DNA of 64,000 nucleotides from Parabacteroides sp. (GCA_022775005.1 JALFJR010000056.1:19151-83150); one strand, 5' to 3'; positions 2,300-62,900 are shown, counted from the stretch's first letter. Translations and numbers: made by a program. Notes: generated by a model from the sequence alone, not told the origin.

Positions 2300-2779
2300 G
2301 TGATAGGATGGTTAGGCTGTCTGACAGCATGCACACAGCCGGCCATTTATGACCAGTTCCAGTCCATAGAGGGGAAGGTGTGGGATAAGGATAAGGTGTA
2401 CTATTTTACCTTTATGATTGAGGATAATCGTATCCCTTATGACTTGACGCTGGCCGTGCGCAACAACAACCTATATCCTTATCAGAATCTCTGGTTGTTT
2501 TGCAACGAGGAACCTCCGATTGGCAGCCTCAAACGAGACACGGTGGAGTATATGTTGGCGGATGATTTTGGGAAATGGTATGGACATGGCATCTCCCTAT
2601 TCCTCTCTACCTTCCCTATCCGTACGAATTATTATTTCCCCTATCCGGGGCAATACACGTATAGTTTTCAGCAGGGTATGCGCAACGAACATTTAGAGGG
2701 TATCCAAGAGATTGGTTTAACGATAACTCCGTCGAAGGTTATCGCTCCTTCCGAGAAGCATCCAAGCGCAAAAAGATAA
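2300..2779 (+). CDS. gldH: Gliding-motility/T9SS-associated lipoprotein GldH family (start uncertain)
   Basis: The 3' half of ORF 1838..2779 reads ...GWLGCLTAC (LTAC lipobox) then TQPAIYDQFQSIEGKVWDKDKVYYFTFMIEDNRIPYDLTLAVRNNNLYPYQNLWLF...DFGKWYGHG, which matches my recollection of GldH family sequences. GldH usually follows PSP1 in Bacteroidota. The only canonical start after the PSP1 stop is GTG 2300. ATG 2156 would overlap PSP1 by 128 nt. Confidence 0.6.
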   Translation: MIGWLGCLTACTQPAIYDQFQSIEGKVWDKDKVYYFTFMIEDNRIPYDLTLAVRNNNLYPYQNLWLFCNEEPPIGSLKRDTVEYMLADDFGKWYGHGISLFLSTFPIRTNYYFPYPGQYTYSFQQGMRNEHLEGIQEIGLTITPSKVIAPSEKHPSAKR

Positions 2780-4184
2780 ATAGCAGGGTGGTGAACCCCC
2801 AGAGCGAGGAGCCTCCATAGCTGAAGAAGGGTAGGGGAATACCGATCACGGGGGTTAACCCCGTGACCATGCCTACATTGATGGCCAGGTGAAAGATGAA
2901 GATGGAGGCGACGCTGTAGCCATAGATCCGTCCGAACGCATTGTCTTGCCGCTCAGCCAAGGCAATCAGTCGTAAGATAAAGATACCAAATAGCAGTAAT
3001 ACCGCTGTCGTACCTACAAAACCCTGTTCCTCTCCCACGGTGCAGAAAATAAAGTCGGTGTCTTGTTCGGGCACGTACTTCAATTTCGTTTGGGTGCCAT
3101 TCAAGAAGCCCTTGCCAATCAAACCGCCTGAGCCAATAGCGATCTTGGATTGATTCACATTATAGCCTGCACCGCTGGGGTCGTCCTCCAAACCCAATGA
3201 CACCTTGATGCGTACCTGCTGGTGAGGCTCCAAAATGTCATTAAACACATAATCCACAGAGAAGAGGAAGCCGAGGGAACCAATGGCAAAGAGGGCGATC
3301 AGCACGTAATGCCACACCCAATGATGGAAGGAGAGGAAAAGTAAATAACCCACGAACAGGAGCACCAGACCGATTGCGATCCATGCGAAGTTGACCGGTT
3401 GAAAGAGGGAAACTAAATAGCCAATACCAAAAATCGCAACAGTTGCCTCGGCCATGACCTTTAAGGCTAAACGATCTTTTCGTTCCATCCAAACCAATGC
3501 CATGGTGATCAGTCCGATCATACAGGCTACGATGAATTGTCCTAAAGCTGTCTCACCCACGACTACATCCGCATATTTCATACCGGTCACGAAGAAGAGC
3601 ACCGCGCAGACACCGATCAGCAGAATATAGCCGCTCATCCCTTCTCGATAGAGCATCAGGAAGAATGCGAAATAGACCAACGCTGAGCCCGTTTCTCGTT
3701 GTAGCAGAATGCAAATCATGGGCAGAAAAATCAACAACAAGACCAAAGAGAAATTCTTTAAGGTGGTCAGCTGAAAACCATAGCCCCCCATAAACCTCGC
3801 TACAGCTAAGGCCGTGGCGAACTTCGCTAACTCCGCAGGCTGAAACTGTATGGAACCTATGACCAACCACGAGTGAGATCCTTTGATATTGGGAGCGACA
3901 AAGATCGTCACGATCAAGAGTGCTAATACTACCGCATAGATCAGGTAGGCGAAGATCTCGAAGAAGTCGCTCTCTAACATCAATAGGATGAAAATGATTG
4001 CCATAGAGGATGCCATCCAGATCAATTGCATACCGGGTCGTCCTGCCGGGTCGAAAAAGCTTACGCCATCATACGCATAGCTGGCTCCGCAGATGCTGAA
4101 CCAACCGGCTACTACCATTAAAGTATAGAGCAGTATGGTAAACCAATCGACCGATTTCCATATCTCTGTTTTCCTATAACGCAT
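2739..4184 (-). CDS. rodA: Rod shape-determining protein RodA (SEDS family peptidoglycan polymerase)
   Basis: 481-aa polytopic membrane ORF of the FtsW/RodA/SpoVE type. It is the last gene of the mreBCD-mrdA-rodA cluster and overlaps mrdA by 11 nt. Confidence 0.9.
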   Translation of the reverse strand: MRYRKTEIWKSVDWFTILLYTLMVVAGWFSICGASYAYDGVSFFDPAGRPGMQLIWMASSMAIIFILLMLESDFFEIFAYLIYAVVLALLIVTIFVAPNIKGSHSWLVIGSIQFQPAELAKFATALAVARFMGGYGFQLTTLKNFSLVLLLIFLPMICILLQRETGSALVYFAFFLMLYREGMSGYILLIGVCAVLFFVTGMKYADVVVGETALGQFIVACMIGLITMALVWMERKDRLALKVMAEATVAIFGIGYLVSLFQPVNFAWIAIGLVLLFVGYLLFLSFHHWVWHYVLIALFAIGSLGFLFSVDYVFNDILEPHQQVRIKVSLGLEDDPSGAGYNVNQSKIAIGSGGLIGKGFLNGTQTKLKYVPEQDTDFIFCTVGEEQGFVGTTAVLLLFGIFILRLIALAERQDNAFGRIYGYSVASIFIFHLAINVGMVTGLTPVIGIPLPFFSYGGSSLWGFTTLLFIFLRLDASRKER

Positions 4185-10479: not shown

Positions 10480-11667
10480 TTAATCTACTAAACCATGTTG
10501 TTTGAATACCTTGTGGATCGTTTCCAGTGCATAATCCAATTGCTCTTTGGTGTGCGTAGCCATCAGAGAGAAGCGGATCAACGTGTCTTCAGAAGCTACT
10601 GCTGGAGCAACAACCGGATTGACGAAGATTCCTGCCTCAAATAACTCCTTTACGATGAGGAAGGTCAAGTCATTGTCGCGGATAAACAATGGGATGATTG
10701 GGGTAGAGGTATGGCCGATCTCGCAGCCCATTTGCCGGAAGCCATCCAATGCGTAATGGGTCAGGTCCCATAAGTGCTGAATGCGCTCAGGTTCATTCAA
10801 CATGATGTCTAATGCTGCGTTCGCTGCAGCTGTAGCTGCAGGCGTATTGCTGGCGCTAAAAATGTAAGAGCGAGAATGGTGGCGCAGATAATTGATGATA
10901 GACTCGTCTGCTGCTATGAAACCACCGATAGAGGCGAATGATTTACTGAAGGTACCCATGATCAAGTCCACATCCTGTGATACACCGAAGTGGTCGCAAG
11001 TACCACGACCCTGACGGCCAAAGACACCAATACCGTGAGCCTCGTCCACCATGACACTGGCGTTATACTTTTTCGCTAATGCTACGATTTCTGGCAATTT
11101 TGCTACGTCACCCTCCATACTGAATACACCGTCTGTAACAATCAGTTTCACCTTGTCAGGCTCGCACTTCTGGAGCTGCTTTTCCAAAGACTCCATGTCA
11201 TTGTGCTTGTATTTCAGTTTTGTGGAGAAGGAAAGGCGGTGTCCTTCAATGATGGACGCATGATCCAGCTCGTCCCATAAAATATAGTCCTCACGTCCAG
11301 TTAAGCAAGAAACTACACCTAAATTTACTTGAAAGCCCGTAGAATAGACTATCGCATCCTCTTTGCCTACAAACTCAGCCAGACGTTTTTCTAATTGAAT
11401 GTGTAAATCTAATGTGCCGTTTAAGAATCGAGAACCAGCGCAACCTGTACCATACTTCTTGACAGCCTCAATCGCAGCCTCTTTTACTTTTGGATGATTT
11501 GTCAATCCTAAGTATGCGTTTGAACCAAACATCAGCACCTTTTTACCGCTGATTGTTACTTCTGTGTCTTGATCGCTTTGGATTTCACGGAAGTAAGGAT
11601 AAATGCCCATGGCCATTGCTCTCTGAGGAGCATCATACTTTGATAATTTCTCTTGTAAAAGTTTCAT
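10480..11667 (-). CDS. spt: Serine palmitoyltransferase-type alpha-oxoamine synthase (PLP-dependent)
   Basis: The protein reads MKLLQEKLSKYDAPQRAMAMGIYPYFREI... and has the PLP-lysine motif GTFSKSFASIGGF. It closely resembles the Bacteroides/Porphyromonas SPT sequences as I remember them, rather than KBL or BioF. Start moved to ATG 11667, because the -7 element at 11753-11760 lies upstream of the track start 11739 and would leave it almost no leader. Confidence 0.7.
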   Translation of the reverse strand: MKLLQEKLSKYDAPQRAMAMGIYPYFREIQSDQDTEVTISGKKVLMFGSNAYLGLTNHPKVKEAAIEAVKKYGTGCAGSRFLNGTLDLHIQLEKRLAEFVGKEDAIVYSTGFQVNLGVVSCLTGREDYILWDELDHASIIEGHRLSFSTKLKYKHNDMESLEKQLQKCEPDKVKLIVTDGVFSMEGDVAKLPEIVALAKKYNASVMVDEAHGIGVFGRQGRGTCDHFGVSQDVDLIMGTFSKSFASIGGFIAADESIINYLRHHSRSYIFSASNTPAATAAANAALDIMLNEPERIQHLWDLTHYALDGFRQMGCEIGHTSTPIIPLFIRDNDLTFLIVKELFEAGIFVNPVVAPAVASEDTLIRFSLMATHTKEQLDYALETIHKVFKQHGLVD

Positions 11668-33139: not shown

Positions 33140-34546
33140 TTATCGCCCGAAGTTGAAGATCGGCGATTCCGTACGGGCATGATCCATGATCGTGACTAAC
33201 TCGGTCACCTTGGCGGGATAGACGGCAGCCAAGTTGCGATCCTCATGCGGATCCTCGCGCAAGTTATACAGCTCGACCCTCGTGTCGCCGTTGATCGGCT
33301 GGCGAATCAGTTTCCAGTCGCCCATGCGGATTGCCTGACGGCCCTTCTCCTCATGAAACTCCCAGTATAAAAAAGCATGCTCCTGCTGGCCCTCCTTCCC
33401 CAGCAACGTAGGCAGGTAAGAGATGCCATCGGTGTAGGTGCCCAATTTCACGCCGGTCAGATCGGCCAAGGTAGGCATCAGATCCCAAAAGGCGGCCTGA
33501 TGCCAGCTCTTTACGCCCGAGGGGATTACCCCCGGCAGCCAGGCCAAGAAGGGCACGCGTATGCCGCCCTCATACATCTCGCGCTTGATGCCGCGCAGTG
33601 GGCCGTAACTCTTGAAGAAATCAGGATCGGCTCCTCCTTCCCGATGCGGACCGTTGTCGGAGGTGAAAAAGAGCATCGTGTTCTTGTCTAACCCCAACCG
33701 CTTCAGCTCCTCCATGATCTCGCCCACATACCGGTCGAGACGGGTGATCATCGCGGCGAACGAGGCTTTCGGCTTCAAGGAGGTGTCGTAGCCGCCAATC
33801 CCTTCCTGATAGCCCTGCTCGGAGATATAGGCCTTCTCCTCAAACCGATCCTCATACATCCGATAGAGTTCGTCGTGCGGCAGGTTCAACTCCGCGTGGG
33901 GGATGGTGTAGGTCAGCATCGCGAAGAAAGGCTCCGCCTGATGGGCGCGGATAAAGCGCATCGCCCGTTCGTGGATTAGGTCTTGCGAATAAGCCTGATG
34001 CCCCTTGTCTCTATTCTCCGGGATCTCTACCCGCTGCTCGTTCTCCCACAGATGATCCGGATAATAGGTGTGCGCCTGGCGCTGGCAATTATAACCGAAA
34101 AACTCGTCGAAGCCCATCTTGTTGGGGGTCGATTCCGAGCCGGGCATCCCCAAGCCCCACTTGCCAAAGAGGCCGGTGCGATAGCCGGCGTTCTGCATCA
34201 GGCGGGCAATCGTGTAGGTGTCTTTCCCCATCGGCTCCTGTCCCTCCGGCCTGATCTCCTTGTTTCCCCGGATTTGCGCATGGCCGGTGTGCAAACCGGT
34301 CATGATAGAGCAGCGCGAGGGGGCGCTCACCGGACATCCGGCGTAATGCTGCATAAACTGCATCCCCTCTCGCGCCATGCGATCGAGATGGGGGGTCTGG
34401 ATATAGGGCTGTCCGTAACAGCCCAAATCGCCATACCCCATATCGTCGCACAAGATGAAAATCACATTCATCGGGGCGTTCTCTTCCGCCCCGATAACCT
34501 GCGATCCTAAGCCTATCAAGGCTGTAAGCCAAAAACTCTTCTTCAT
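33140..34546 (-). CDS. Ser-type sulfatase (S1 family, arylsulfatase/GalNAc-6-sulfatase-like)
   Basis: Signal peptide and metal-site motif FILCDDMGYGD. The sulfatase signature PVSAPSRCSIMTG has Ser at the formylglycine position. The start ATG overlaps the stop of the upstream gene (ATGA). Confidence 0.85.
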   Translation of the reverse strand: MKKSFWLTALIGLGSQVIGAEENAPMNVIFILCDDMGYGDLGCYGQPYIQTPHLDRMAREGMQFMQHYAGCPVSAPSRCSIMTGLHTGHAQIRGNKEIRPEGQEPMGKDTYTIARLMQNAGYRTGLFGKWGLGMPGSESTPNKMGFDEFFGYNCQRQAHTYYPDHLWENEQRVEIPENRDKGHQAYSQDLIHERAMRFIRAHQAEPFFAMLTYTIPHAELNLPHDELYRMYEDRFEEKAYISEQGYQEGIGGYDTSLKPKASFAAMITRLDRYVGEIMEELKRLGLDKNTMLFFTSDNGPHREGGADPDFFKSYGPLRGIKREMYEGGIRVPFLAWLPGVIPSGVKSWHQAAFWDLMPTLADLTGVKLGTYTDGISYLPTLLGKEGQQEHAFLYWEFHEEKGRQAIRMGDWKLIRQPINGDTRVELYNLREDPHEDRNLAAVYPAKVTELVTIMDHARTESPIFNFGR

Positions 34547-35379
34547 GCCTGTTCTGTTTCGGATTCTTCGGGCATAACGGGCTGTGTGATCGGTTCCTTT
34601 GCCTTGGCCGCCCGGGTCTGACGGGCTTTCAGCGTAGCCTTCTGCTCGGCGATCAACACGTTCATGCGGTTGATGAAAGGCAGGTAGGCGGTATCGCCCT
34701 CCACTTTCGCCAGCAGGTTCACGACATCTACCAAATGGGTGTAAGTGGCCTCCGCCTCAGTGCGGGTACGCTTCACGGCTCCCACCTCCTTCTCAGAACG
34801 CACATCGGTGCGAGCGGCGACGGCAGCTAAGTAGTTGTTCTCCGCCGTATCCAACGCGTTAAACCACTCCTCGTAATGAATCTTGCTCCGATCCTGGGCC
34901 GGAATGGCCTGAATGTCTTGGATGAGGTTGTGCAGCGCACCACTCTCCTGCACGACTGGCAGATAGGTCAAGTCGCCATACTTGTCGAACTCCGCCTTTA
35001 GTCGCTCCGCGATCGCTGCCAACTCCGGATTCGGGTGCGCGGTCATCGCCTTGATATAGGCGTTGTTGCTCCGCCACAGCCTGTCGCGCAGCTCCTCGTA
35101 GGCTTTTGCCTCCGCTGAATCCGCAGTGCTGCTCTCCAAAGCGACGTCAAACGCCTGGTAAGCCGCCTCAAACGCATTGATGGGCGCCTCCAACATGGCG
35201 TTGATCACCTCGCCAGAGCCAGACAGCGCACTTACACCTCCCTCGACACTGACAACATCAGGGTTTTCCGGCTCTGCCTCTTTCTGCAAATAAGGCAACA
35301 GGCTCATCACTAATTTGAAATAACCAAAAGCCTCCTCGTTGCGGAGACGACTCAGACTTAAAATAGAAATTTGTTCCAT
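34543..35379 (-). CDS. Uncharacterised helical protein, paralog A (family shared with 60930..61736)
   Basis: MEQISILSLSRLRNEEAFGYF... with a C-terminal ...FINRMNVLIAEQ... and an acidic tail PEESETEQA. Start set to ATG 35379 because the -7 element at 35419-35426 lies over the track start 35421. Confidence 0.6.
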   Translation of the reverse strand: MEQISILSLSRLRNEEAFGYFKLVMSLLPYLQKEAEPENPDVVSVEGGVSALSGSGEVINAMLEAPINAFEAAYQAFDVALESSTADSAEAKAYEELRDRLWRSNNAYIKAMTAHPNPELAAIAERLKAEFDKYGDLTYLPVVQESGALHNLIQDIQAIPAQDRSKIHYEEWFNALDTAENNYLAAVAARTDVRSEKEVGAVKRTRTEAEATYTHLVDVVNLLAKVEGDTAYLPFINRMNVLIAEQKATLKARQTRAAKAKEPITQPVMPEESETEQA

Positions 35380-35418
35380 ATCGTTTGTCGTTTTAAAGTT
35401 ACGGCAATATCGCCATGC

Positions 35419-35426
35419 CAAAGATA
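35419..35426 (-). promoter_or_regulatory. -7 element TATCTTTG for paralog A
   Basis: Text caaagata is the reverse complement of TAnnTTTG, 40 nt upstream of ATG 35379. Confidence 0.45.
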
Positions 35427-35482: not shown

Positions 35483-35680
35483 AAAAAACTTTTAGAAGCC
35501 GTTTCGCAAGCTTCGACGGCACGAAAAAACTTTTAGAGGTCGTTTCGCAAGCTACGACGGCACGAAAAAACTTTTATAAGCCGTTTCGCAAGCTACGACG
35601 GCACAAAAAAACTTTTATAAGCCGTTTCGCAAGCTACGACAGCGCAAAAAAACTTTTAGAAGCCGTTTCGCGCATACGGA
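35483..35680. repeat. Tandem array A: about 5 copies of a 41-bp unit AAAAAACTTTTAGAAGCCGTTTCGCAAGCTACGACGGCACG
   Basis: The C that follows each A-tract is at 35489, 35530, 35571, 35612 and 35653, an exact 41-bp period. Each unit contains the imperfect inverted repeat GCCGT(TT)CG-N7-CGACGGC. Confidence 0.9.
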
Positions 35681-55625: not shown

Positions 55626-55670
55626 CAACGTGTTTTTCATGGTATTAGATTTAAGGTTAACAATGAGATT

Positions 55671-55704
55671 GGCTGTCCGGGATGGATGGCCTTTTCTTTT
55701 TGTT
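55671..55704 (+). terminator. Plus-strand rho-independent terminator
   Basis: GGCTGTCC-GGGAT-GGATGGCC, an 8-bp stem with two G.T pairs, followed by TTTTCTTTTTGTT. The U-tract is on the plus strand only and overlaps the pmbA stop codon. Confidence 0.6.
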
Positions 55705-60929: not shown

Positions 60930-61736
60930 TTAAGAAACCGTCTCCTCCGGTTCGATGGGCTCTTCCGGGGCATCCTCCGCCGTTTTCCCCTTCGCCCGTG
61001 CGCTCCGTCGGGTGACCGTCTCGATCGTCCGGAGAATCTCCGCGTTCATCCGGTCGATGATCCGCTCTATCCGTGCCGCCTTCTCCGCGTCTCGATCCAT
61101 ATAGGCCGCCGTGAGGTAACTGGCTGTGATCAAATCCGCCAGATCGGCGAAGGACTTCTCCACGACCGGCCGGATCTGCACCATGTTGACGCGGTATGTG
61201 CGGGTTAGCCGCTCGTTTGCCCGTATCGAGACCTCCGTCTGGAAACGCTCTGCGGATTGCCGCAGCTCCACCACCTCATTCGTCAGCCCCAGCGTCTCCA
61301 CATCTGCCGCGTATTTTTCGGTCTGCAGCTTCTCCGTCAGATCCAGCACCATCGCGATGGTCTCTGCGTAGTTTTTCACCATGACTCCCTTATAGGGCGT
61401 GAGCGCGAAATAGACCCGATTGGCCGCCTCGGCGATTTCCGGAACGAAACTCTTCCGGTAGGCACGTATCTGAAAGCTTAACGCGCTGTATCGCTGGTGG
61501 CAATGCTTTTTCGCTGCCTTCACCGTTTCCGTATTGGCATATTTTTGGCTGTTGAGATAGGCCTCATTCTCCCTTTCGAAGGCATCGGCAAAGGCTTTCC
61601 AGTATTCCCAGATTTTTAATTCTCTCGCCATCTCCTGCGTAATACTTTCCAATAAGGAATGAAACAGGCTATAATGCTCGCCATTGCGTACAAACATCAT
61701 GTATTTCCGATCCAATATCTTTTTCATGATTTCCAA
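60930..61736 (-). CDS. Uncharacterised helical protein, paralog B (family shared with 34543..35379)
   Basis: 268 aa. ...FVRNGEHYSLFHSLLESI... aligns with RLRNEEAFGYFKLVMSLL of paralog A, and ...IIDRMNAEILR... aligns with FINRMNVLIAE. Both end in a basic stretch followed by an acidic PEE-rich tail. Confidence 0.6.
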   Translation of the reverse strand: MEIMKKILDRKYMMFVRNGEHYSLFHSLLESITQEMARELKIWEYWKAFADAFERENEAYLNSQKYANTETVKAAKKHCHQRYSALSFQIRAYRKSFVPEIAEAANRVYFALTPYKGVMVKNYAETIAMVLDLTEKLQTEKYAADVETLGLTNEVVELRQSAERFQTEVSIRANERLTRTYRVNMVQIRPVVEKSFADLADLITASYLTAAYMDRDAEKAARIERIIDRMNAEILRTIETVTRRSARAKGKTAEDAPEEPIEPEETVS

Positions 61737-61793
61737 ATACTATACAGGTTCAACAATGATTAATTGAAAACTTTCTAAAAAGCTTTTCAGCTA

Positions 61794-61801
61794 CAAATAT
61801 A
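61794..61801 (-). promoter_or_regulatory. -7 element TATATTTG for paralog B
   Basis: Text caaatata is the reverse complement of TAnnTTTG, 58 nt upstream of ATG 61736. The first repeat of array B starts 13 nt further upstream. Confidence 0.45.
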
Positions 61802-61813
61802 ATTATTTTATTC

Positions 61814-62100
61814 TTTCATATAATTATGAAAATGCAAATAAGAACTATTTTATAATTTCATACGATTATGAAAGTATAAATAAGAATTATTTCAAGCTTT
61901 CATACGATTATGAAAGTATAAACAAATACTATTTTGGAATTTCATATTATTATGAAAGTATAAAAAAAACTATTTTAGACTTTCATACTATTATGAAAAT
62001 ATAAAAAAGAACTATTTCATAATTTCATACCATTATGAAATCATGAATAAGAAATAGTTCATACTTTCATACTATTATGAAAGCATGAATAAGAATTTTA
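61814..62100. repeat. Tandem array B: 7 copies of a 42-bp unit carrying the palindrome TTTCATA-N4-TATGAAA
   Basis: TTTCATA starts at 61814, 61856, 61898, 61940, 61981, 62023 and 62065, a period of 42, 42, 42, 41, 42 and 42 bp. The linker consensus is AAAtAAGAACTATTTTAnAa. Confidence 0.9.
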
Positions 62101-62237
62101 GGGATGCAACGTGTTGCGTTATTTCCCTCACATAAAATGCAAATGATCATTTGGACAACATTAAATTTATTTTTTACCTTTACCGCATTGAAACCACAAT
62201 GAAAGAAGCACATTATCCTATTATTATAGATACAATT

Positions 62238-62900
62238 ATGAACAGAAGAACAGTTCTTTCGATGGTTCTGGTAGGACTCCTCGGCTTCGCGCAAGCCCAA
62301 AACAACTCCAACGACATGCGAATGGCTCCTCAGTTTGCTCGTGTCTTGACCGATGCGGATAGTGATCAGGCGCAATCTTTGTTTGAGCTGATGGAGCAGC
62401 TGTGTCAGGAGTATTCGATTGACCGGGATCGCCTCTACAACACGGGGCAGTCGATGGGTGGCATGTTCGCGCTCTCGACCAACATCGCCCGTCCGGATAT
62501 GTTCGCTGCCTCCTATCTGGTGGCCTGCCAGTGGGACACGAAAGAATTCTATAAATTCGCCAAGAAACCGATGTGGATCGTTGTGGCTGAGGGGGATCCG
62601 AAGGCCTATCCCGGAATGCAGGAGGGCTGTAAGGCTTGGGCGGCAGCTGGTGCTAAGATCGCTGAGGCACAATGGGATGGTAGCCATCTGACCGATGCCT
62701 ATGCGGAGGATGTGGCGAAACTGCGGGCGGAAGATGCGAACATCCGTTTTGTCCATTTCAAGTTAGGTACGGTCAAGAGCTCAGAGTTTGGCGGTCCCGC
62801 CAAGGAGCACATGGCTACTTGGCCTGTGGCTTATCGCATCGCTGGCATTCGCGATTGGCTCTTTGAACAACGTCGTTCCTCGCGGGCTGATTCACAATGA
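62238..62900 (+). CDS. Secreted alpha/beta-hydrolase (esterase) with an apparently shortened N-terminal half
   Basis: Signal peptide MNRRTVLSMVLVGLLGFAQA and nucleophile elbow GQSMGG. Candidate Asp is in AEGDPKA and candidate His in KEHMATW. Only ~55 aa separate the signal peptide from the nucleophile. Start moved to ATG 62238. Confidence 0.6.
   Translation: MNRRTVLSMVLVGLLGFAQAQNNSNDMRMAPQFARVLTDADSDQAQSLFELMEQLCQEYSIDRDRLYNTGQSMGGMFALSTNIARPDMFAASYLVACQWDTKEFYKFAKKPMWIVVAEGDPKAYPGMQEGCKAWAAAGAKIAEAQWDGSHLTDAYAEDVAKLRAEDANIRFVHFKLGTVKSSEFGGPAKEHMATWPVAYRIAGIRDWLFEQRRSSRADSQ

Follow-up and report, generated by a model that had tools for sequence, protein, structure and literature searches.

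At parC/ParR centromere-operators and omega-repressor heptads, ribbon-helix-helix (RHH) proteins bind tandem repeats around their own promoter. The iterons of theta plasmids are 17-22 bp long and usually direct repeats, and they are found with a Rep gene, DnaA boxes and an A/T-rich unwinding region. F-plasmid sopC consists of 12 repeats of 43 bp, and SopB binds the 16-bp inverted repeat that each of them contains (PMC3177203). BrickBuilt of Porphyromonas gingivalis is a dispersed minisatellite or MITE (miniature inverted-repeat transposable element) whose 23-nt units follow one another without spacers between a leader and a tail with inverted-repeat ends (PMC4596501). Here we describe array B, a set of seven tandem 42/41-bp units with dyad symmetry that lies directly upstream of a DUF6261 gene in a 64,000-nt stretch of Parabacteroides sp. 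DNA (GCA_022775005.1, JALFJR010000056.1:19151-83150; hereafter the window, with positions counted from its first letter). We conclude that array B is a real, selected, non-transcribed tandem dyad array and that it belongs to a previously undescribed promoter-upstream module of DUF6261 genes. We know of no described tandem operator array of this kind in Bacteroidota, and a targeted literature search returned no description of such an array in this phylum.

A pattern search of the window for the 18-bp palindrome TTTCATA-N4-TATGAAA (TTTCATANNNNTATGAAA) gave seven exact matches within 61814-62082, spaced at 42, 42, 42, 41, 42 and 42 bp (Table 1), exactly as an earlier note on this DNA had reported. 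Dinucleotide-preserving shuffles gave a chance expectation of 0.02 matches. The note had reasoned that a mere background motif would turn up at random sites; outside the array, the only further site in the 64 kb was at 11662 and carried one mismatch. The intergenic region of array B has a G+C content of 23%, compared with 49% for the window, and 14 specified bases repeated exactly seven times argue that the array is not an effect of composition. Tandem Repeats Finder (TRF) placed it at 61804-62095 with a period of 42, 7.0 copies, 82% matches and a score of 318. As the note had also read, the arms are invariant across units while the 4-nt centre and the linker drift. The centres on the plus strand are, in order, TAAT, CGAT, CGAT, TTAT, CTAT, CCAT and CTAT, so that AT is the invariant last dinucleotide (NNAT), and the linkers drift yet retain a partial dyad of their own. 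When the units were aligned in register, the whole 42-bp unit proved to be an imperfect palindrome centred on the 18-bp palindrome.

Array B is followed by the promoter of the DUF6261 gene, which we call paralog B. Its Bacteroidetes-type -7 box (TATATTTG, or CAAATATA on the plus strand; consensus TAnnTTTG) lies at -74 from the ATG, a position shared with two orthologues, L098 and L001. The box is 12 nt from palindrome 1 (~13 nt in the earlier estimate), and at this distance palindrome 1 would cover the -33 region, as had been suggested. The other end of the array had been put ~140 bp from a short esterase gene; the ATG of that gene, at 62238, is 143 nt past the array end.

The same two orthologues allowed the array to be compared with its surroundings. 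L098 (88% protein identity) and L001 (79%; from another Parabacteroides metagenome-assembled genome, MAG) both keep seven units at an equal distance to the ATG, and thus the absence from relatives that would have spoken against a function was not seen. All 98 arm bases of L098 are identical to those of the window and its centre dinucleotides differ. For L001, identity to the window was 92% in the arms, 68% in the centre, 65% in the linkers and 70% at third codon positions. Judged by these identities, the arms of array B are under selection, as the fixed arms had been read to suggest. Three gut metagenomes from pig and rat also yielded DNA contigs with seven-unit copies of array B, and in one of these metagenomes the gene next to the array had 25 differences in 708 bp; samples in which the DUF6261 gene differs by 3-21% at the nucleotide level still have seven units of array B.

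Unit number varies between strains. A contig of run X25 carries a six-unit variant of array B with a 43-bp (one-unit) skip from 61966 to 62010, which loses 61967-62009; run X70 has a two-unit (82-bp) deletion at L025 1241-1324; and the closely related loci L103 and L010 have 8.2 and 2.3 copies. Such variation is what might be expected if the array had no dedicated binder at all and its phased A/T tracts and dyads gave curved or easily wrapped DNA resembling an UP element, with unit number acting as a heritable expression rheostat (7 vs 6 units, 8.2 vs 2.3 copies, the two-unit loss). The 41-42-bp period, which is held whatever the sequence, and the A/T block, such as AAAAGTTTTTT, that recurs in many units fit this explanation too. 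It does not account for the drift of the A/T-rich linkers beside arms whose conservation exceeds the neutral level, nor for an array that still has seven units beside a gene that has diverged so far. Curvature also needs no dyad symmetry, yet symmetric double substitutions keep the dyads, as described below, and we regard a purely structural element as improbable.

The association with DUF6261 is not limited to array B. The window contains exactly two DUF6261 genes (hidden Markov model search of all open reading frames). It has just as many tandem arrays with a period of 40-43, and each gene has one of them directly upstream. The second, array A, precedes paralog A and has a G+C-rich unit unrelated in sequence to that of array B. 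A scan that used no protein information looked for paired neighbouring copies of the palindrome in a set of prokaryotic genomes with a single genome for each species. It led to a Chitinophagaceae contig (a MAG) where the identical palindrome recurs in three 41-bp units, ~75 nt upstream of a gene whose product is a DUF6261 protein by Pfam (E = 1e-31). Compared with paralog B, this protein has only ~25% identity in a local alignment of ~100 residues and ~17% over the full length. Further DUF6261 loci with enough upstream DNA each had a 41- or 42-bp array, and its sequence was different again.

A metagenome scan with a paralog-A-like profile yielded 80 loci in 15 protein clusters, and a pooled census took in all loci with at least 300 nt of upstream DNA (n = 93, 349 kb). 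TRF detected arrays at 68 of these 93 loci, with a period of 41 in 54 and of 42 in 14; copy numbers range from 1.9 to 8.2, and the distance from the array end to the ATG is 47-265 nt (median 102). Away from this upstream position, TRF found no 41/42-bp array in the 349 kb. The strongest self-similarity lag in the 400 nt upstream was 41, 42, 82 or 83 in all 15 clusters, those missed by TRF included; only 2 of 41 control segments gave such a lag. Nearly all the sampled family members are therefore preceded by a phased 41-42-bp dyad array. In 17 of the 23 upstream regions scanned, covering 12 of 14 metagenome clusters, there is a TAnnTTTG box between array and ATG; among the 23 regions, the canonical box was not found in two clusters and in L004, L010 and L103. 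The pairing is also present in a cultured strain, Prevotella nigrescens FDAARGOS_1486, where a 41-bp array of 3.6 copies with the dyad TGCCGAA-G-TTCGGCA lies ~70 nt before the likely ATG. It is kept in unrelated genomic contexts, and we found no conserved partner gene among the related DUF6261 loci. This family-wide occurrence shifts the meaning of array B from that of a local operator to that of a conserved module.

The family itself is large and little described. It comprises 5,469 clusters at 50% identity (E <= 1e-3) with members of 230-340 aa, is specific to Bacteroidota and has multiple paralogues per genome in the dominant gut genera. No domain fusions occurred among the best 150 matches, and a profile search for more distant relatives returned only sequences that were already known. 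Our literature search found no paper discussing DUF6261, a single paper that names it in passing, and no 41-bp repeats in Bacteroides or Porphyromonas. Two of the loci deserve mention. At L101 (1501-2079), a PepSY_TM gene overlaps a DUF6261 fragment, truncated to 192 aa, that has no upstream array; the module appears to have been lost from this decayed copy. At the Prevotella nigrescens locus described above (L104; NZ_CP082843.1, K8O81_RS10460, 2339-3292), the deposited DUF6261 coding sequence begins within the 41-bp array; its annotated start is probably ~46 codons too early, the family-typical N-terminus beginning at ATG 2478. Gene callers extend starts into the arrays, and this Prevotella nigrescens record is an example of a caveat for annotation.

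The fixed position of the arrays bears on whether array B could lie here by chance, either as a BrickBuilt-like minisatellite or MITE, selfish or neutral, or as a centromere or set of iterons of plasmid type. Intergenic tandem repeats are known in Bacteroidales, BrickBuilt with its 23-nt unit having 19 copies per genome (PMC4596501), and in form array B resembles the 12 x 43 bp of sopC with their inverted repeats (PMC3177203). One Bacteroidales MAG also has the same palindrome in 21-bp arrays, of which at least five are intergenic. A chance resident of this kind would not be expected to keep a strict one-to-one position before one gene family in unrelated contexts, or to be conserved across species beyond the neutral expectation. 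Array B has no terminal inverted repeats and no leader or tail subunits, its motif has no other copy in the window, its context is chromosomal, and Pfam found no ParA, ParB or Rep in nine window genes that include the flanks of both arrays. We consider this very unlikely and the least probable of the explanations. The MAG in question, Md513_bin13 (termite-type), has five such intergenic arrays of 6-17 units with a 21-bp period and TTTCATA-N4-TATGAAA, not beside DUF6261 genes (Table 1); they look like BrickBuilt-type minisatellites, or may alternatively be further binding arrays for the same factor. In a Christensenellaceae MAG (Firmicutes), three copies of the palindrome at 22-bp spacing, the middle one with two arm mismatches, lie just upstream of an HTH_36 gene (L006 5187-5250) and are probably an unrelated operator.

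How the arms change between relatives is informative about what is selected. In relatives at 55% identity, TTTCATA/TATGAAA has become TTTCAAA/TTTGAAA on both sides, with the 7-N4-7 geometry kept. Among proteins 75-82% identical, GTCCCC/GGGGAC has been replaced on both sides by GTCGAC/GTCGAC, GTCGTC/GACGAC or GTCCGAG/CTCGGAC, and the switch from GTCCCC to GTCGAC is seen even between proteins 93-97% identical. From these paired substitutions, the dyad symmetry of the units is clearly selected.

Compensatory changes in the arms are also expected of a stem, and the earlier note had offered a dimeric-protein operator and an RNA stem side by side. The array would then be transcribed, its units forming RNA stem-loops in a structured leader or a tandem small-RNA precursor. 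A 6-7-bp stem is possible in each unit, and single-strand folding of array B was far more favourable than that of shuffles (z = -9.6), a result that is uninformative for palindromic arrays of any kind. We examined transcription in assembled metatranscriptome contigs rather than reads, and the strength of this evidence is therefore moderate. In four gut metatranscriptomes, the depth was 10-53 over the paralog A gene and zero over array A. RNA contigs of paralog A have their 5' ends at 35398, where the contig runs straight into the sequencing adapter, and at 35405, both just downstream of the -7 box. For array B, the depth was 0, 0 and 2.4 in three of the four runs (paralog B gene, 3.5-22), and in one run paralog B and the downstream amidase gene were joined on one RNA contig. 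The fourth run, X25, is labelled as RNA and covers everything, array B included, and may contain DNA. RNA contig ends at 61743 were rejected as a transcription start of paralog B, because a DNA run breaks there too, beside a single-nucleotide polymorphism at 61744.

Other features of the arrays also speak against stem-loops. The -7 box is downstream of the arrays, and in several clusters the terminator hairpin of the upstream co-directional gene precedes the array. Some sister-array dyads have centres of 0-2 nt (ATCCTGCAGGAT, CTTC-CA-GAAG and CTAGAA-GT-TTCTAG; in L103, read by eye, TGAAA-G-TTTCA and GCCTT-TG-AAGGC), which do not permit full hairpins yet are ordinary for symmetric-dimer sites. 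Over 438 arm pairs from non-redundant units, the mismatches were 18 G:T, 14 A:C and 29 other, and with no bias towards G:T over A:C there is no strand bias of the kind left by an RNA stem. Rfam 15 gave no match in either array, its matches in the window being restricted to RNase P, tRNA-Pro and FopS. A transcribed array is accordingly very unlikely, and of the two proposals it is the symmetric operator that fits best.

The reading that we consider probable, with modest assurance, is that array B is a DNA-level cis array of protein-binding dyads, part of a conserved module that controls the DUF6261 gene and whose likeliest binder is the product of that gene. The module would consist, in order, of the tandem 41/42-bp dyad array, the -7 box, a short leader and the DUF6261 gene. 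Seven dyad-symmetric sites 41-42 bp apart would stand immediately upstream of the promoter and overlap its -33 region, and since this period corresponds to four turns of B-DNA, all of them would lie on one face of the helix. A symmetric (dimeric) protein may occupy each unit, with the bound proteins interacting along that face. The occupied array would determine how strongly the gene is transcribed, with the proximal site mediating either repression or activation, and the strain-variable copy number would tune the response. The weakest step is that the binder would most likely be the product of the adjacent gene (autoregulation), its first ~11 residues adding specificity.

The DUF6261 product leads the candidates, though it is unproven, since changes in the arms are accompanied by changes in its first 11 residues. 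Residues 8-16 read N(V/I)KQLRTEE in all six of the clusters that have GTCCCC-N3-GGGGAC, and these clusters form two clades that are only 54-59% identical overall. In each lineage with altered arms, residues 10-11 are altered as well (AR, TR, TS, SP). One cluster of 91-100% identity contains 18 distinct proteins of the GTCCCC type and eight of the GTCGAC type; only residues 3, 4, 5, 10 and 11 separate the two types, and outgroups at ~80% identity agree. Between L070 and L024, both of the GTCCCC type, the first 36 nt are 92% identical, compared with 62-71% for the gene body and 57-60% for the upstream DNA. Elsewhere the pattern is reversed: for L051 and L028, and for L024 and L025, the bodies are 94-100% identical and the first 11 codons, promoter, array and both flanks are unrelated. 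Identity jumps at codon 12 from 67% to 97-100%, with different flanking genomic contexts. These genes are mosaics, and their structure suggests that paralogous loci undergo gene conversion which ends at the conserved codons for LRTEE.

Several observations weigh against autoregulation by DUF6261 or against parts of the module. A single recombination block with a sharp breakpoint at codon 12 takes in the array, the promoter and the first 11 codons, so that the association of N-terminus and array could be linkage. The AF2 model of paralog B is an all-helical bundle (pLDDT 81), and in both AF2 models (pLDDT 81) the bundle is elongated and shows no fold recognisable as DNA-binding; in the model of paralog A the N-terminal residues are confidently packed on the bundle, and conservation of the N-terminus could thus be structural. 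Foldseek with the two models against the PDB returned nothing below E = 0.06, the best probabilities being for the sensor bundles of McpS and TorS, and sequence and profile searches of the PDB with DUF6261 gave no match. Pfam detected no RHH or helix-turn-helix (HTH) domain in DUF6261 N-terminal fragments, and for the two DUF6261 proteins PADLOC gave no match and PHROGs only noise. The window and the Chitinophagaceae locus have the identical palindrome and unrelated DUF6261 N-termini. About one quarter of the DUF6261 loci show degenerate periodicity only, and one RNA-labelled run, X25, covers array B. An RHH fold for the N-terminus, which we had considered, is unsupported by the monomer model and was kept as no more than a weak lead.

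Some of these points would be explained if the array were an operator or enhancer bound by a separate trans-acting factor, such as an HU-HIG protein or a conventional dimeric regulator, with DUF6261 only as its target. The lack of a DNA-binding domain in the DUF6261 fold, a single palindrome that serves DUF6261 proteins ~17% identical over the full length with unrelated N-termini, and its presence in 21-bp arrays that are not beside DUF6261 genes are all consistent with this. A histone-like HU-HIG gene also lies immediately upstream of the array at 20 of the 80 metagenome loci (6 of 15 clusters). The arrays adjacent to HU-HIG genes are the most degenerate, the 64-kb window contains no HU-HIG gene, and no partner gene is conserved across loci. 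Moreover, array sequences differ between the paralogues of one genome and between close relatives, and a separate binder would therefore require a matching repertoire of regulators. We think that a separate factor is rather unlikely. At the HU-HIG loci (L018, L020, L021, L023, L041, L058 and relatives), the gene order is a Vsr endonuclease gene on the opposite strand, the HU-HIG gene, a terminator, a degenerate 41-bp array and DUF6261; this order lies ~250-850 nt upstream of the DUF6261 ATG, and the arrays there are the most decayed.

Control by the gene's own product could extend further. Tentatively, and with doubt, we raise the possibility that DUF6261 is an unrecognised class of sequence-specific DNA-binding proteins (>5,000 clusters at 50% identity), in which a short N-terminal specificity cassette of each paralogue is matched to a private 41-42-bp dyad array before its own gene, cassette and array are exchanged as a block, and the body is homogenised by gene conversion. 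If true, this nucleoprotein system would be self-addressed and oligomerising, and nothing comparable has been described in Bacteroidota. The arrays give DUF6261 its first concrete handle, in the form of a cis element open to testing, a binding partner that is predicted and a segment that is a candidate for specificity. The promoter-upstream architecture would also be unusual for Bacteroidota, if the reading holds.

Around array B, the genes that follow paralog B on the same strand encode amidase_3, radical-SAM/SPASM, TldD and PmbA proteins by Pfam. PmbA is the last gene of this string, and an Rfam FopS small RNA (55630-55703, plus strand, 74.8 bits) abuts its 3' end. The plus-strand esterase gene on the other side (62238-62900) is a remnant that retains, of an 888-aa homologue, the signal peptide and residues 127-336. 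Mutation has turned its -7 box from TACCTTTG into TACCTTTA. An intact 888-aa esterase/GDPD/DUF4996 protein is encoded at the orthologous place in L001. The short dyad at the distal edge of the array (Table 1) is conserved in the orthologues, without any difference in L098 and with a single change in L001, and a similar hairpin, GCAAC...GTTGC, occurs in the 5' leader of the DUF6261 genes of the HU-HIG group. Other tandem repeats include a 22-bp x 4 repeat in the window at 603-691 (AAAACATTGCCCATTATTTTTT) and 23-bp x 2.6 arrays ~770-830 nt upstream of DUF6261 genes in three clusters. A defence or phage origin was rejected: PADLOC found nothing, PHROGs gave noise, and the sole homologue recorded as 'phage' is an unverified 6-kb faecal contig of the HU-HIG group. 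A plasmid origin was likewise rejected, tblastn against PLSDB giving a single match, in a Prevotella nigrescens replicon of 568 kb, while the Chitinophagaceae protein had no match there.

Table 1. Coordinates of the arrays, palindromes, promoter elements and DUF6261 genes (window positions unless a locus is named).
Feature	Position	Strand	Basis
DUF6261 gene paralog A, 278 aa, downstream of array A	34543..35379	-	Pfam, E = 1.6e-29
-7 box of paralog A, TATCTTTG	35419-35426	-	RNA 5' ends just downstream, at ~35398-35405
Array A, 41 bp x 4.6, GCCGT-N13-ACGGC plus AAAAGTTTT	35483..35671	.	TRF score 315
DUF6261 gene paralog B, 265 aa, preceded by array B	60930..61727	-	Pfam PF19775, E = 5.4e-22
-7 box of paralog B, Bacteroidetes type	61794..61801	-	read from sequence
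Array B, seven 42/41-bp units, whole-unit imperfect dyads	61802..62095	.	TRF, units aligned in register
Palindrome 1, promoter-proximal, TTTCATATAATTATGAAA	61814..61831	.	pattern search; ~-44 to -27 relative to predicted transcription start
Palindrome 2, TTTCATACGATTATGAAA	61856..61873	.	pattern search
Palindrome 3, TTTCATACGATTATGAAA	61898..61915	.	pattern search
Palindrome 4, TTTCATATTATTATGAAA	61940..61957	.	pattern search
Palindrome 5, TTTCATACTATTATGAAA	61981..61998	.	pattern search
Palindrome 6, TTTCATACCATTATGAAA	62023..62040	.	pattern search
Palindrome 7, distal, TTTCATACTATTATGAAA	62065..62082	.	pattern search
Short dyad GCAAC-GT-GTTGC, distal edge of array B	62106..62117	.	read from sequence
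21-bp arrays of Md513_bin13	L002 4244-4600, L005 3851-4100, L007 5453-5790, L008 483-710, L009 5406-5530

Compared with known systems, array B shares with BrickBuilt that it is an intergenic tandem repeat in Bacteroidales, BrickBuilt also having reported promoter activity (PMC4596501). BrickBuilt is not tied to one gene family, whereas array B has a fixed position before DUF6261 and is conserved across species; with this position, a 42-bp unit and a motif confined to the array in 64 kb, we rejected a BrickBuilt-type element. A CRISPR or guide array was rejected as well, since the units are homologous throughout and differ only in two centre nucleotides and scattered linker bases, and Pfam found no Cas families in the nine window genes, including those flanking both arrays. 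Iterons would be comparable, by analogy, as phased tandem repeats beside the gene of a binding protein that autoregulates; an iteron origin was rejected on the period of 42 bp and the lack of a Rep family among the neighbours by Pfam, and the DnaA boxes and unwinding region that go with iterons are absent here too.

In form, sopC is the nearest known system (PMC3177203): both consist of tandem direct repeats of about four helical turns, the unit length and 7-bp arms are nearly those of array B, and in sopC the dimeric binder is encoded next to the repeats. The sopC-type feature of ~43-bp tandem repeats is present in array B as 42/41-bp units with a 7-N4-7 inverted repeat. Array B differs in being chromosomal, in touching the promoter of a single gene and in the private sequence of each paralogue, and DUF6261 is an all-helical bundle unrelated to ParB. 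By Pfam, no ParA or ParB is encoded by the genes flanking the arrays (DUF6261, amidase_3, radical SAM/SPASM, TldD, PmbA and esterase), and no ParA, ParB or Rep by those related-locus neighbours that were scanned or carried precomputed Pfam data. This absence and the chromosomal context place array B outside the partition and iteron families. From ParR and omega systems it differs in repeat length (7-20 bp there, 41-42 bp here), in having no partner ATPase and in a binder candidate without a detected RHH fold. The feature typical of operators is nevertheless present, with repeats that abut the promoter and palindrome 1 at 12 nt from the -7 box. In logic, the nearest systems are such arrays bound by a protein of the neighbouring operon, and by analogy with ParR and omega, repeats at the promoter of the binder's own operon, cooperative binding along one face and autoregulation may serve as the working model for array B.

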